Source of the DNA: Candidatus Krumholzibacteriia bacterium | GTDB taxonomy: Bacteria; Krumholzibacteriota; Krumholzibacteriia; WVZY01 | Reading direction: 5' to 3' | Assembly: GCA_036478295.1 (NCBI GenBank) | Contig: JAZGDW010000062.1 | Coordinates: forward strand, 1-29,668 | DNA length: 29,668 nucleotides | Shown here: piece after piece, positions 21,001-29,668 of the stretch | How positions within the stretch are numbered: the first letter of the stretch is position 1 | How the letters are laid out: every line of letters begins with the position of its first letter | Program-made: the position numbers

Positions 21001-24000
21001 GAGTTCCTGTTGTCGCACCCCGACATCCACCTGCCCGAACAGCCGAAGTACTACAGCGTCAACCAGGGACACGAGAAATACTGGTCGGAAGGCATCAAGT
21101 GTTACACGCGATGGCTACAGGGGGAAGAAGGCGCTAAGCGGTCGCTGTCGCTGCGATACATCGGATCGATGGTCGCCGACATTCATCGCACGCTTCTCGG
21201 TGGCGGCGTGTTCTACTATCCCGCCGACAGCAAGGACCCAAAAAAACCGCATGGAAAACTAAGACTGCTCTACGAAGCCAACCCCATGGCCTTCATCATC
21301 GAGCAGGCCGGTGGCTACGGCTCCACGGGCAAGGGGCCGCTGAGGGACGTTCAACCCACCGATCTGCACCAGCGGGTACCACTGTTCCTCGGCAATCGGG
21401 ATCTGGTAGAAAAGGCGGAAGCGTTTATTTCGGAGCACGATGGGTAGGTCTTCGCGGCGCAGGAAATCCCCAGCGACATCCACATCCGATGGTCCCGAAC
21501 ATGACCGCCGGTGGCGTGTCATCCTCTTTGTCATCATCTTCGCGGCCGCGTTTCTGTCCGTCGGTTACTACCGGCATCAAGGCGGCAGCGGCTACCCGCT
21601 CGACGACAGCTGGATCCACCTGACATTCGCGCGCAACGTCGCCTCGGGCGCCGGCTTCGGAGCCAACCCCCACGAGCCAACGCCGGGCGCCACCTCGCCC
21701 CTTTGGGTGTTCTTCCTTGCCCCGGGATTTCTCTTCGGCCCCGCGCACGCCGTGTGGCCATGGGTTCTCGCAACGTGTTTCCTGGGTGCCGCCGGTGTTC
21801 TGTGCGCGATTCTCGTGCATGTACTGCGCCGGACCATTTCACCGGACGATGACGCGGTACCTGGCCGGGCCCGCTTGTCTCCGGGCTGGCCGGGGTTCGT
21901 GTGCGGCCTCGCCGTAGTGTGGAGCGGTCCTCTCGTCTGGAGCGCCGCGGGGGCGATGGAAGTGCCGCTCTTTGCCTCATTAATCATCGCGGCCCTCCTC
22001 GTGTATGCCAGGAGCGGGCTGCCGGGGTGGCGCAACGGGGTGGCGTGGGGTGGCGCAGCTGGCTTCGCCGCCCTGGCGCGACCCGAAGGCTTGCTGCTGG
22101 CGGTCGTCCTGGCGTTTGTGTCGTTGTCGCGCATGCGGCGGGGTGCGATGGTTGAAGCCGGGGTCGGGCTCGCTGCGTGCGCCGTCGTGTACTCCCCGTC
22201 GGTTTTGTTCTGTCTGTCGACCAGCGGGCGGGTTTTCCCCAATACGTTCTATGCCAAGACGACGGCGCTCGTGGCCGGACCTCCGGACGCAGCGTTTCTC
22301 GGCGGGGCGGCGCGGTTCTTTGCCGGCGCGGCGCCCGTCGCCCTCCTCGGTTTTTTTCTCGGTGTCGCGGTTCTGGGCTGGATGCTGCGGCGCCGCGCAC
22401 CGGTTCACGCGCTCGTTGCGCTGGCGGCGTTTGCCGTGGGATTGCCGCTCGCATACGCGGCGATGGGAAGAACGTTTCTTTTTGCGGGGCTCGCGGGCAA
22501 CTTCGGACGCTACCTCTACCCGGTGTTTCCGCCGGCCCTGGTTCTCGGCTTTTGGGGTCTGGCGTGCGTCACGGATGTCACCCCGCGACGGTGGGTGGCA
22601 GCCGCGGGGCGCGGGCTCATGATCGTGGCGCTTGTCGTATCGATCACGAAAGCCGTCGACCGCGTCGAACTGTACCGGCACAATGTCCGCGACATCAACT
22701 CGATGCAGGTGGCCATGGCACACCGGCTCCGGAGCGCGCTGCCGGCCGGTTCACTGGTGGCGGCCAACGACGTGGGCGCCCTGGCTTACTTCACGGACTT
22801 CCGGGTTCTGGATCTCGAAGGAATTATCAGCACGCACACGATGAAGGTGCTGGAGGATGCGGGGCCACGCGGGCGGGAGCGCGCCCACTACGAACTCCTG
22901 AACAGCGAGCGGCCGGCGGCGCTGGTCGTGTTCCCCCAGTGGTTCGCCGGCGTGTTGACAAGGCTCGGTGATGCCGCGCGTCCAATCGAGGTAATCGAGA
23001 ATCGCCGCAATATTACTGCCGGCGGCTCGCGGCTCGTTGCGTTCCGCCTCGACTGGGGGCAGCCCTGAAAAAAAAGCTGGCCGTGCGGACCGCCTGCCTA
23101 CCCGGCGCCAACTACCATCGTAATCCCCAACGCCGGCGGATTGGCTTTACTCCCGCGGGCACGCCCTCGCGAGTGGTCCAGCCGGAAACACCAGTCTTCC
23201 TTTCGAACTGAAAACGTCAGGCGGTAATCGAGCGTGAGCGGCAAGGCAGCTTCGAAGGCGTCCTCGAGGTAGCGCACGGTGCGGGGGTGCCGCCTGAACG
23301 CCCGCAATTGGCGCACACTCAATTCGACCCTGATATCCAGAGTCGGCACGGCCTCCGCGCTAGCGTTTCCCAACACCATGCTCCGGCTCAACCGGCACTT
23401 AGCGCTGTCCCCGAGCGTCAAACCGTCACGCACCGGGCACGACTCTTTTTCGAATACGATGTTCGACTCCACACGAATGCCGTCGGCCGCCTTCAGGTCC
23501 TCCTTGTTTCTCGACAGGAGGATCTTGAACGCCAGGACGATGACCTCTCGGACCAGCGTTCCCACACTCTCGAGATCGTTCGCGTCGGAAAGCATGTAGA
23601 CCCTGAGCAGCCGCCGGGCGTGGTACTCGAAATACGACTTTGCGAGGTTCTCTTCCGGGCCGGCTTCTTCACGACTCGACTGCTCGGCAAGGATGGAATA
23701 GTCCCTCCGTATGTAACGGTTGCCGTATGAGCTCCTTGAAACGGGAATGCCTGTCTTCATCCGCTTCTCCCGTCTACCGAACTTGCAACACTACCTGGCT
23801 GCCGACCGGCGACCGGTCATCGACAAAACTCTGAATGGTTTCGACATGTCCCTTGGTGAGCGGCTTGCCACGCTTGCTTTGAAGATAGACCACGGTCACG
23901 CGTCTCCGGGCGCCATCGACCACACGGAGTTCGGTGACCGGGTTCTCTATCTCTACATCCTCGTATCCCAGCTTTTCGACGAGATCACCGATGATATGAA

Positions 24001-27000: not shown

Positions 27001-29668
27001 ACCCGCTGTTCGATGCTACACACCAAACAGTTCGTTTCGACGCGGGTGGTCAAATTCCACACCCGAGATCTTCATTTCCGACGAGATGACCGTAAAACTC
27101 AAGTTGAACTTCTCGTCATGAATGGAGAAACTGCTGTCGATGTCACCCAACCAGGCCTTGGAGAACTCGACGGTCTGGATCGACTCGCCCACCGGCTTGT
27201 CGTCCCGTCCCTTGAATACCTGTATGATACCGGATCCTTTGCTTTCGGCATCGGCGTGCTGTGCCGACGCGTATTCGTACAGGTCCTTGGCCGGTTCTGC
27301 TCCCGGCGGGAGTTCCAGGTTGACACGGATCTCGCCCGGCGCGCAGTTGGCCAGTTGGCCTCCGCCGACCGTCTCGACTGACACGTCAAAGTTCGTAACC
27401 TTGTATTCCGCGCCCGAACCCAGCTTGAACTTGATAACCATGACTTCCTCCTTGAGGTCGATGGGGACGGTGCTTACCGCACCTCCCCGTACAATAGAGT
27501 CACCAACGCAACACGCGCCTTGGCACTTAAATCATGCAGCCCGGGTGCTGTTTATTCTTCCGCTGCTTCTTCGTCGCGGCTCTCGGCATCGATCTCGAAC
27601 TCATCGGCGGTGCTCGACCAGCCGACGTTCACCTTGACCTTGAACTTGCCGAGGTCGTCCTTGCTGCACTCCGCAATCTTCCAGCTCTTGATCTGCTTTT
27701 TCTCCTTCATGTCCTGCAGGTATTTCTCAACCTTCGCCCGGATAACCTTCGGCTCCTCCTGGCCACCGACGTAGCGCTCGAGCTCGGTAATCAGAAAGAA
27801 GTAGATCCGGTTGCGGGTCACCCGTGCCTGCGACTGGATCAGAGGCACGGCCTGGTTGCCGAAGGCCTGGATGTCCACCGCGTCCTCGGGAAACGTCGTC
27901 GAACCGCCGTAGATACGAACGCCGGCGTCGGTCGCATCCTGGCTGGCGTTCGTTGTATAAGCGAAGTTGAACTGGTTCGACACCGCATCCTGCCAGGCGC
28001 CGCGCCGATCGACGACGTTGACGGTCTTCATCTCCGTCGGCTTGATCTTCGGGTGAATGATGGGCACGAACCAGTGACCCTTTTTCTCCCGCTGGAAATA
28101 CTTGGTCATCTGCGCGCCGAACGCGTAATTCAGTCCGACGTTCAAAGATTTTTTCTCGTGGTACTCCTCATGCGGGGGACGGACGACGAGTTCGTTTGCC
28201 ACCATCGATGCGTGTGACAGTGCGGATTGCTCCTCTTCGCCCACGCTGTTGATGTTGAACTTCCAGTTACCCACGAGTTTACCCATCGAATCGAGATTGT
28301 CTTCGACCGGCAGGGCTCCGAGGATGTGAAAATGGTAGTTCTCCGCCATGCGCATGTAAGGAATCAGAGACATGGATTCGCCCTCGAGCTTGTCGAAGGG
28401 AAGAAACATGAAGCTTCTGTATTCACCACGGGCGATGTGGAAGTTCGTAGCCTTGACCTCGTGTTCGACCACCTTCTGAAAGGCCGGTTTGATCAAGAAG
28501 TTCGGACCGATCAGAAGCGAGGTCTGGTTCTTGCGCAACGCGGGCGCTTTGGCGTCCAGTGAATTCGCCTTCCACAGGATGATATTGTTCGCCAGTATCT
28601 CCCGCGGGCGCAGCTGCGTGAGCATCTGCCCGACGCCGAGACTGATCGCCGCTTTTAGCTGCTTCTTTGCCTCCCGCAGATTCGTCAGTTCCACCTTCTG
28701 CTGATTTGCCGAATCCAGAGAGTCGGCGATGAGGTTCAACACCTCGGCCATAATCAGTTTTTTCGAATGGGTGAAATTCGGGCTCGTCTTGAGGTCCGCA
28801 TTCGTGGCCCACTTCGCGTTGAGTATGCTCAACTCGTTGTTTTGCTTTGTCTTCGCGTTGAGGATCTCATCCGCACGAGCGGCTGCCTCCTGCTCCAGTG
28901 GCTGGGCGGTTTGCAGCTGTTCGATCGGCTTCCTCGCGGCTTCTGGCTGATTTTCGGGAGCCATCGGCATTATTGACCTCCTTGAAACAACTCATTTACT
29001 TCGTCTTCGGTGAGCCCACCCTTTTGCTTCGCTTCTTCGCTCGTCACCGTGTATTTCATGTAGCGTTCCTTCGTCTCCGCAATGGACCTGGACAGGGTGG
29101 CCTGCGCCCCGTCTGTCTTTGCGTCGACCGCGTTGAGGGCCTCGTCCTGCAGGCTCGCCGCCAGCTCGCGTGCGCGTTGTGCGACGACCTTCTTGTCCTC
29201 ATCGCTCATAGAGCCCCCAAAATCGAGCGTCGAAGGGTCGTTGAGAAAATGGGTGACGGCGTTGAGTTTCGCTTGCAGCTGGGATAGCAAAGTGGATTTC
29301 CAGATCAGATCCTCCGGATCATCGATCCATTTGCTGTCGTCGACACCAAAGCGGTCGCTTTCCGCTTCGCCCAGCGGCTTGAAACCGTCGCCGGTCGGAT
29401 TGATGTAGACGTTGCCGGTGTAATCGGACAGCTTCTCCATGAGACTCTTCAGGCTCTCTTTGCCCTCTTCCTTGGCGAAATCGAGTGAACCGGTCACCGG
29501 ACAACGCTTGAACACGTCGTTCTCGTCCTTCACGCTGCCCAGGTAAACGACATCCGTCATCGCCGGGTCTACGCTGATCCCGAGATTCTGGTCCAGCGGG
29601 CCTTCCGTGGAAGCCTTTTCCACCGGATCACCTTTCTTTATATGAGCACCTTTTCCTGCCATGGTTTA

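Follow-up and report, generated by a model that had tools for sequence, protein, structure and literature searches.

At the end of a contig from a Krumholzibacteriia bacterium (the window, the whole stretch of 29,668 nucleotides analysed here), six adjacent genes raise the question of whether this genome encodes a type VI secretion system (T6SS), how such a machine would be held in the envelope and to which known subtype it is related. A preliminary description had read them as the core of a T6SS that is related to T6SS-iii and invisible to Pfam. All six ORFs were found on the minus strand between 23098 and 29662 (Table 1), with tssB starting at 29662, 6 bases short of the end of the contig, rather than at 29623 as first given, and they almost certainly encode a T6SS tail. 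The invisibility stood for the sheath, tube, TssB, TssF and TssG, none of which reaches a Pfam or NCBIfam cut-off, and fell for the spike, since VgrG passes Phage_GPD and Phage_base_V and the PAAR protein passes DUF4280. Promoter and terminator scans stayed at chance level. We consider the best explanation, at a probability of roughly two in three, to be an envelope-anchored, recyclable T6SS of a separate lineage, sister to Bacteroidota T6SS-iii and encoded by 11 genes.

Table 1. Putative T6SS genes at the end of the window and the basis of each assignment
Gene	Product	Length (aa)	Coordinates	Strand	Basis
tssB	small sheath subunit	230	28970..29662	-	predicted co-fold with sheath protein
tssC	large sheath subunit	472	27552..28970	-	Foldseek and VIA structure match
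hcp/tssD	tube	141	27016..27441	-	sub-cut-off PF17642, profile match
vgrG	spike	552	25307..26965	-	Phage_GPD and Phage_base_V over cut-off
tssF	baseplate wedge	506	23774..25294	-	Foldseek of AF2 model
tssG	baseplate wedge, shortened	220	23098..23760	-	sub-cut-off PF06996, profile match

A two-subunit contractile sheath is indicated by the fold of TssC together with its predicted complex with TssB. The re-run AF2 model of the tssC product reached a pLDDT of 74.7 (75 had been reported), and its six best Foldseek matches were again all T6SS TssC/VipB (E about 1e-7, identity 10–11%). With VIA, the model matched P. aeruginosa TssC1 at Z 21.0 (rmsd 4.5, 337 aligned) and 3j9o_B at Z 19.6, against 17.9 for the best phage sheath and 16–17.5 for eCIS sheaths. 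The sheath profile gave a weak full-length match to the T6SS-iii sheath (hhalign, E 0.0037 over 319 columns) and none in a PDB sequence search, a plasmid search with the sheath was likewise negative, and the T6SS-iii sheath model PF17541 was found in 0 of 9 sheath-positive genomes and 0 of 42 aligned members. TssB, which is longer than other TssB proteins and whose stop codon overlaps the tssC start, matches no known TssB significantly, by sequence or by profile (hhalign E 0.16–0.88), and had been named by position. Its predicted complex with the sheath protein scored an ipSAE of 0.90 (best control 0.00) with about 500 contacts, runs agreeing in at least 80% of contacts and a partner pLDDT of at least 84; the score mark is reached by 116 of 157 solved pairs and 2 of 215 mismatched pairs, although the pass may reflect likeness, as the VipA/VipB complex is already solved.

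Tube, spike and tip are represented by Hcp, VgrG and PAAR. Hcp stayed below the PF17642 (TssD) cut-off in all five copies scanned (E 0.012 to 5.8e-5), and VgrG matched TIGR03361 at E 2.3e-12 and carries no large C-terminal effector extension. A Clp ATPase is encoded immediately before tssB in 16 loci; it scores below the TIGR03345 cut-off and falls in a clade separate from the other Clp proteins of the same genome. From these sequences, a dedicated ClpV, the candidate recycler, appears to belong to the system.

The baseplate is represented by TssF, TssG and TssK, TssF through the fold of a low-confidence model (pLDDT 58.7). Foldseek placed chains I and H of the TssK–TssF–TssG complex 6n38 first and second for this model (E 1.7e-7 and 2.9e-7, TM about 0.3) and other CIS baseplate proteins third to sixth; we take these chains to be TssF, consistent with their length. 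In the VIA-wide comparison the same low-confidence model gave no T6SS TssF row (best Z 8.6). Given this fold and the co-fold of TssB, the names TssF and TssB, both earlier assigned by position, no longer rest on position alone. TssG matched PF06996 at E 2.2e-4, below cut-off. TssK aligned over its whole length with its T6SS-iii counterpart (probability 98.6, 325 columns, common end point) and gave no global alignment with T6SS-i TssK (five T6SS-i rows, of which one, L122, is mis-translated); residues 12–288 of 353 in the TssK of locus L044 match positions 3–255 of 429. With the boundary of the head domain set where we presume it to lie in T6SS-i TssK, the alignments indicate a TssK that lacks the C-terminal head, as T6SS-iii TssK does. 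In T6SS-i this head binds TssL (passages of PMC10433429).

Could the locus instead encode an unanchored or lysis-released injection system of the eCIS or T6SS-iv-like kind, with the two envelope genes beside tssK incidental? The sheath scores of eCIS and the lack of any known membrane complex would suit such a device, but a two-subunit sheath, TssK, TssF/TssG and a Clp ATPase, none of them typical of eCIS, are all present, and no cap, tape-measure or fibre gene occurs among the 11. Moreover, the gene for one of the two envelope proteins, the one with tandem ubiquitin-like domains, coincides fully with the sheath in its distribution, both occurring in the same 9 of 208 phylum genomes. ClpV is encoded here, though T6SS-iv lacks it (passages of PMC10433429). 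We regard this reading as extremely improbable.

The wider operon is compact and conserved. The order tssK, tandem-ubiquitin-like membrane protein (Ubl-TM), outer-membrane candidate, clpV, tssB, tssC, hcp, vgrG, tssF, tssG, PAAR, previously described for G207, G032, G039 and G117, was recovered in all four and is identical in six independent loci (also L044 and L046), spanning 12.5–13.3 kb with gaps of at most 200 nt, bar one of 714 nt in L044. The operon is under purifying selection: dN/dS, computable for 38 of 44 gene pairs, was 0.00–0.45, all values but one being at most 0.27. The reported sheath counts, 9 of 208 phylum genomes and eight GTDB loci with one in a Pirellulales bin, were reproduced, whereas the matches among representatives numbered 14 instead of 15. 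The Pirellulales occurrence is doubtful: it concerns 1 of 301 genomes of the order and a 4.1-kb contig, and no Ubl-TM gene was found in the bin. In the present genome all 11 genes were found over four contigs, with clpV on C24, the tssK trio on C35 and PAAR on C129, as already noted. When the ends of C24 and the window's contig, C276, are butted, a 26-nt clpV–tssB spacer with a GGAGG results (26–27 nt in the four closest complete loci), so that the junction probably lies between these genes; the contig of a relative, 97% identical, continues 1,584 bases beyond the window end. In relatives, the operon end is flanked by genes for a VanY-like peptidase (E 3.4e-5) and a Fic protein and, in three genomes, by one unnamed family. 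These variable genes are the probable cargo, which quite plausibly includes antibacterial effectors; 11 such candidate proteins had no match in this genome.

The missing cargo homologues, the four contigs, the orphan PAAR gene, a swapped C-terminal domain (LA_2272 repeat) in the outer-membrane candidate and the absence of the sheath from the same-genus genome G206 might suggest that the system is a fragmenting relic here that no longer fires. This seems very unlikely, since the 11 frames are open and of the same length as in relatives, several are preceded by Shine-Dalgarno-like sites, dN/dS against G173 is 0.09 for tssC and 0.23 for tssF, and in three of four comparisons contigs of close relatives leave none of the 30 bins of the stretch uncovered.

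That TssE, TssA and the known membrane complexes are not recognisable, as the preliminary description stated, held in the operon and in the genome searches. TssE was not seen in six complete operons, PF04965 passed its cut-off in 0 of 5 genomes, and three local profiles gave a best E of 0.048 in this genome, a search that an equally diverged unlinked copy could escape. One gp25 match in G117 was dismissed as a TssE candidate, since the surrounding locus is phage-tail-like. Passages of PMC5511345 yielded nothing on whether TssE is dispensable. For TssA, PF06812 was negative in five genomes (control positive), as was a local profile in this genome. The TssJ/TssL/TssM complex of T6SS-i does not occur in the operon, and in the genomes, where no search was aimed at TssJ, PF09850 and PF14331 passed their cut-offs in 0 of 5 (E. 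coli controls positive), as did PF17555 for TssN. TssQ, TssO, TssP and TssR of T6SS-iii are absent from the operon, PF17643 found nothing in five genomes (no positive control rang), and local TssO, TssP and TssR profiles, with no search aimed at TssQ as a separate family, returned only one PKD-like match in this genome (E 0.004).

These results bear on the possibility that the machine is the same and the operon incomplete, with diverged TssE and membrane-complex subunits encoded elsewhere and a system that is not minimal. The searches that miss TssE also miss the system's own TssB, TssC and TssF; genes do detach in this lineage, as the trio on C35 and its second detached copy in G039 show; and T6SS-iii loci are often split, with TssO, TssQ and TssR often undetectable (passages of PMC10781749). 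Against this, each of the six loci carries these 11 genes and no further conserved ORF of at least 70 aa, the searches took in a single-contig genome (G039), and in a second, T6SS-iii-like lineage of the phylum tssE lies between vgrG and tssF and is readily found, whereas the corresponding gap here is 12–16 nt or holds only the PAAR gene. We consider an incomplete operon rather unlikely.

For the separate-lineage T6SS that we favour, the candidate anchor is encoded beside tssK. The neighbouring gene, described earlier as encoding two ubiquitin-like domains and a membrane helix, does encode tandem N-terminal ubiquitin-like (Ubl) domains, the N-terminal half matching ubiquitin folds; a single membrane helix is present in all 10 proteins examined, and this protein is probably the TssK anchor. 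Together with tssK and the outer-membrane candidate its gene moves as a unit. In T6SS-iii, TssK co-purifies with TssN, whose cytoplasmic domain is ubiquitin-like and whose gene adjoins tssK (passages of PMC10781749). Likeness between the Ubl domains and that of TssN extends over only 23–29 columns (E 0.002–0.02). The third trio protein, formerly listed as of no known kind, combines a signal peptide with Ig-like domains and a helical domain and ends in Phe in all 12 copies, and therefore reads as a candidate outer-membrane partner. Its membership in the anchor is slightly favoured; no copy was found in G038, which is 84% complete, and a full-length homologue lies behind a ThiF/E1 gene in sheath-negative G183. 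A PDB search with the Ubl-TM profile gave one chance match, ESM Atlas feature searches with both envelope proteins gave no usable match (structure rows TM <0.5), and hhalign linked neither to TssP, TssO, TssR or the other lineage's anchor candidates. Since two envelope genes are few beside three in T6SS-i or five in T6SS-iii, parts encoded elsewhere may have escaped notice. Docking is a likelier role than conjugation for Ubl domains that lie internally, as these do, and no E1 or RING-like gene was matched in the 25 loci searched.

Is the system, then, a fast-evolving member of T6SS-iii, with the Ubl-TM protein a rearranged TssN and the Ig protein in place of TssP? In profile comparisons, Hcp, TssG and TssK match their Bacteroidota T6SS-iii counterparts (E 1.1e-8, 3.5e-9 and 1.6e-11) much better than those of T6SS-i (0.077, 3.4e-4 and 0.053), the head-less TssK is shared, and the nearest neighbour of ClpV is T6SS-iii (SH-aLRT 94, not starred). 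However, PF17541, PF17555 and PF17643 are not reached, and TssN has several N-terminal helices and a C-terminal Ubl, unlike the two N-terminal Ubl domains and one helix seen here. T6SS-i and T6SS-iii TssB match each other (E 6.8e-6) and the TssB of this locus neither, and a profile search returning 52 proteins held no bridge to TssC-iii. In quick IQ-TREE analyses with 4 (ClpV) and 3 (VgrG) T6SS-iii rows, both proteins form their own clades at 100% support, with stems of about 3.5 (with a long-branch warning) and 2.8 changes per site; the ClpV tree leaves out L040 (a copy of G032), L022 and ClpV rows below 740 aa. Because both proteins branch outside the T6SS-iii clade as sampled, the earlier "related to T6SS-iii" stands as nearest relative and not as member, and membership is improbable.

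In the separate-lineage T6SS, folds, profiles or the co-fold show TssB and TssC as the sheath, Hcp as the tube, VgrG with a DUF4280-type PAAR protein as the spike and TssF, TssG and TssK as the baseplate, the dedicated Clp ATPase being encoded just before tssB. We propose that (i) head-less TssK would dock on the two cytoplasmic Ubl domains of its single-helix inner-membrane neighbour, much as T6SS-iii TssK does on the ubiquitin-like domain of TssN; (ii) the third trio protein, sitting in the outer membrane via its C-terminal strand, would be contacted at its helical and Ig domains by the periplasmic beta domains of the Ubl-TM protein; and (iii) the sheath would polymerise without a recognisable TssE or TssA, contract and expel tube and spike, and be recycled by ClpV. 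Reviews list four T6SS subtypes (passages of PMC10433429). Tentatively, this system could be a fifth and the smallest described, with 11 genes, no TssE or TssA, and a third kind of anchor that pairs just two proteins, a tandem-Ubl one in the inner membrane and an Ig one in the outer membrane, and that may have been co-opted from membrane-associated bacterial ubiquitin-like operons. If so, the lineage and T6SS-iii together would show that the FCB group ancestrally docked a head-less TssK on a beta-grasp domain. Where the T6SS-iii membrane complex came from is described as an open question (passages of PMC10781749), and an outgroup with a head-less TssK and a ubiquitin-like docking partner, without TssNQOPR, would make it testable. 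The lineage is also a natural test of whether sheath assembly needs TssE and TssA, and demonstrates that whole lineages escape profile-based T6SS censuses.

Compared with T6SS-i (TssA–M), the system shares the TssB/TssC sheath fold and predicted heterodimer, the TssF fold, VgrG, PAAR and ClpV, and differs in having no TssA, TssE, TssL or TssM matches, a TssK without the TssL-binding head, an Hcp that is not alignable and structural matches at about 10% identity. Since 21 of the 208 phylum genomes have a T6SS-i, the system noted in one Latescibacteria SAG with ten of thirteen core genes (passage in PMC4454575) is more likely T6SS-i. The Francisella T6SS-ii has a DotU/PdpB/IglE membrane complex and ClpB in place of a dedicated ClpV (passages of PMC5924787); here DotU and IcmF models are negative in five genomes and a dedicated Clp is present. 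T6SS-iv and eCIS differ from this system, with its ClpV and two-subunit sheath; theirs is a single-chain, Afp-like sheath. PF17541 marks 22 of 208 genomes, none of the nine, as earlier counted; they hold the second T6SS-iii-like lineage, of which we found no description in the literature searched, and no genome of the phylum has both. That lineage shares the order clpV-tssB-tssC-hcp-vgrG-(tssE)-tssF-tssG and matches in the Hcp, VgrG, TssG and TssK profiles, and differs in its TssE, Pfam-detectable TssB/TssC, longer TssK and candidate anchor of a 309-aa membrane protein and a 736-aa GTPase-like membrane protein. T6SS-iii itself (Bacteroidota, TssNQOPR; passages of PMC10781749) differs in phylum, in its PF17541-type sheath, in TssE, TssN and TssR, for which no match was found here (nor, in this genome, for TssO and TssP), in a TssB to which the 230-aa protein has no match, in its anchor and in its ClpV and VgrG clades. 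It is alike in the TssD-type Hcp, TssG and head-less TssK, in loci that can be split, in having no detected TssJLM or TssA, and in a tssK that adjoins the gene for a membrane protein whose cytoplasmic domain is ubiquitin-like. TssN has itself been likened to EccD (passages of PMC10781749), and EccD/YukD of the T7SS and the membrane-associated bacterial ubiquitin-like operons likewise have as their scaffold a membrane protein with fused beta-grasp domains.

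Six independent loci (in genomes G207, G032, G039 and G117, and loci L044 and L046), spanning 12.5–13.3 kb, share one order of 11 genes: tssK, a gene for a protein with ubiquitin-like domains and a membrane helix (Ubl-TM), a gene for a predicted outer-membrane Ig protein (OM), clpV, tssB, tssC, hcp, vgrG, tssF, tssG and PAAR. At L045, L034, G173 and G195, the PAAR gene follows vgrG instead. The dN/dS values lie between 0.00 and 0.45 for 38 of 44 gene pairs, the remaining six being saturated. In the source genome, contig C276, which makes up the entire window, carries six of these genes, tightly packed (see table), and the others are scattered, as a preliminary description had stated: clpV lies on C24, the trio of tssK and the two envelope genes on C35, and a PAAR gene (DUF4280 match, E 1.2e-22) on C129. 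That C24 and C276 abut, previously taken as given, is very probable, since the joined ends yield a 26-nt spacer with a GGAGG, compared with 26–27 nt in G207, G032, G039 and G117. The trio and the PAAR gene are truly detached from the main locus, because unrelated genes flank both inside their contigs. The system had also been called invisible to Pfam; this holds against Pfam and NCBIfam for five of the six system genes in the window, but VgrG passes the Pfam cut-off. Sub-threshold Pfam hints were confined to the TssG and TssD models, and the three remaining genes gave nothing relevant in either database.

The sheath is present in 9 of 208 phylum genomes. Its rarity among 1.84 billion representatives was borne out, with 14 matches rather than the 15 first counted. 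Searches of 5.8 billion proteins, grouped into clusters, yielded 46 sheath clusters at first and 52 later, all of them lacking Pfam domains. The distribution is patchy and horizontal transfer likely, because the ClpV and VgrG trees place G207, of the same family as the source genome, among genomes from different families, and G206, of the same genus, gave no sheath match.

For the 472-aa TssC, a model folded from a 42-row alignment (pLDDT 74.7) confirmed that the six best Foldseek matches are all T6SS TssC/VipB chains. With an independent aligner the best match was P. aeruginosa TssC1 (337 aligned at rmsd 4.5, Z 21.0), ahead of 3j9o_B (Z 19.6), while sheaths of phages and eCIS scored at most 17.9. 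The 230-aa protein encoded before tssC matches no TssB profile, whereas the TssB proteins of T6SS-i and T6SS-iii match each other. Its co-fold with the sheath protein nevertheless scored ipSAE 0.89–0.91 versus 0.00 for the best control, with about 500 contacts, at least 80% of them agreeing between runs, and a partner pLDDT of at least 84; this mark is reached by 116 of 157 solved pairs and by 2 of the 215 pairs that were mismatched. With the VipA/VipB complex already solved, the pass may reflect likeness to it rather than binding, and it is this modelled likeness that suffices to name the gene tssB. The 506-aa tssF product gave a weak model (pLDDT 58.7). Two chains of 6n38, the TssK-TssF-TssG complex, head its Foldseek matches (E ~2e-7), and the next ranks are wedge proteins from other CIS; in the second aligner the best score was Z 8.6, with no T6SS TssF among the matches.

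Models of TssL, TssM-related proteins and TssN reached cut-off in none of five genomes, including one assembled into a single contig, nor did TssR, in a search without positive control. Ubl-TM, encoded after tssK, contains two mutually related ubiquitin-like domains (E 2e-5), with TUG-UBL1 above cut-off in one of seven copies; ubiquitin folds make up 8 of the 10 Atlas rows, all of which have TM <0.5. A single membrane helix occurs in 10/10 copies, the C-terminal half reads as beta-rich, and the gene is found in precisely those nine of the 208 genomes that have the sheath. At its N-terminus the OM protein has a hydrophobic stretch; it further comprises a helical domain and Ig-like domains, and all 12 copies end in Phe, a pattern known from outer-membrane insertion signals. 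It matches strongly in eight of the nine sheath-positive genomes and also in the sheath-negative G183, whose neighbouring genes make a link to bacterial ubiquitin-like operons possible. The trio moves as a unit: in the source genome it lies apart from the other genes, and G039 has an additional, likewise detached copy, with no tail genes in the 20 kb scanned there. According to PMC10781749, TssK co-purifies with T6SS-iii TssN, which has a ubiquitin-like cytoplasmic domain and a gene adjoining tssK. The parallel between TssN and Ubl-TM, as candidate envelope anchor of TssK, is strong, although sequence likeness is limited to 23–29 columns and topology differs.

Neither TssE nor TssA models reached cut-off in any of the five genomes. 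As stable sheaths in P. aeruginosa require TssE (PMC6657622), its absence here would be either the most interesting property of the system or a detection failure. Francisella likewise had no assigned orthologue of TssE or TssA as of PMC5924787.

What directly follows the operon differs between loci: L044 has a VanY-like peptidase (E 3.4e-5, below cut-off), L045 a 150-aa protein with no PDB match and motifs known from Tlde1-type effectors, and G207 a Fic protein and an unnamed 510-aa protein. One unnamed family near the operon end in G032, G039 and G117 (28–30% identical), with no Pfam or NCBIfam match, is a candidate effector. We infer an antibacterial role for such cargo; 11 candidate cargo proteins of relatives gave no match in the source genome.

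Coordinates of the features discussed
Feature	Location	Remarks
Six system genes	C276:23098-29662	minus strand
Ubl-TM gene	C35:6695-7930	Ubl domains at about residues 1-190
Genes downstream of tssG	C276:20350-23068	class 1 fructose-bisphosphatase and membrane glycosyltransferase-like gene on opposite strand; unrelated to the system
Gene upstream of tssK	L077:9231-9968 (G000:C35)	common to source genome and G207; C-terminal layout as in OM protein (hydrophobic segments, terminal Phe)
Tandem hcp genes	L035:3249-4026	two copies
Gap after hcp	L044:9060-9775	714 nt; no plus-strand ORF of 70 aa inside
Second G039 trio	L136:11019-14586 (G039:C1)	tssK-Ubl-OM; more diverged; ~1.4 Mb from main operon
G183 OM homologue	L140:769-4199 (G183:C24)	full-length match, E 3e-64; behind ThiF/E1 gene and membrane protein with Cys/His-rich RING-like end
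Phage-tail or eCIS-like cluster	L138:6000-15600 (G117:C157)	gp25, baseplate and spike-like genes; G117 also has the system
Unnamed family	L027:16137-17600, L028:16295-17482, L030:16163-17407	395-487 aa; either orientation; common SGTT and GHH motifs
Second T6SS lineage	L063-L076, L102-L109, e.g. G057:C10:17900-32900	T6SS-iii-type sheath and Hcp, outside Bacteroidota

No description of the system was found in the literature searched; a passage in PMC4454575 mentions a T6SS in a Latescibacteria SAG without detail. Against profiles built from six Bacteroidota plasmid T6SS-iii loci, Hcp, TssK and TssG match at E 1.1e-8, 1.6e-11 and 3.5e-9, compared with 0.077, 0.053 and 3.4e-4 against T6SS-i profiles from the same phylum, where T6SS-i occurs in 21 of 208 genomes and G173 carries both systems. 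TssK and T6SS-iii TssK can be aligned over their whole length (325 columns, prob 98.6). Each ends about 65–80 residues past the stretch matching the first 255–300 positions of the T6SS-i model, which has 429, and both therefore lack the TssL-binding head. That TssL is bound by the TssK head is stated in a passage of PMC10433429. Several results speak against membership in T6SS-iii: TssC matches it at E 0.0037 only, TssF at 0.027 and TssB not at all. In trees with few T6SS-iii rows, ClpV and VgrG each form their own clade (100%) outside those rows; ClpV lies nearest to them, but the support for this is not starred and the tree carries a warning about long branches.

The PF17541-positive lineage was confirmed in 22 of the 208 genomes, with zero overlap with those carrying the present system. 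Its core genes are arranged as in the present system, with tssE in addition, and its TssK is long; in place of TssNQOPR it encodes a 309-aa membrane protein and a 736-aa double-GTPase-like membrane protein, with PAAR, OmpA-domain and DcrB-like genes upstream. Among complete genomes, PMC10781749 detected T6SS-iii in Bacteroidota alone, and this second lineage looks undescribed. The system studied here would work like a T6SS: it passes the general tests open to this analysis, fails those that define T6SS-i, T6SS-iii and T6SS-iv, and is best regarded as a candidate new T6SS subtype.
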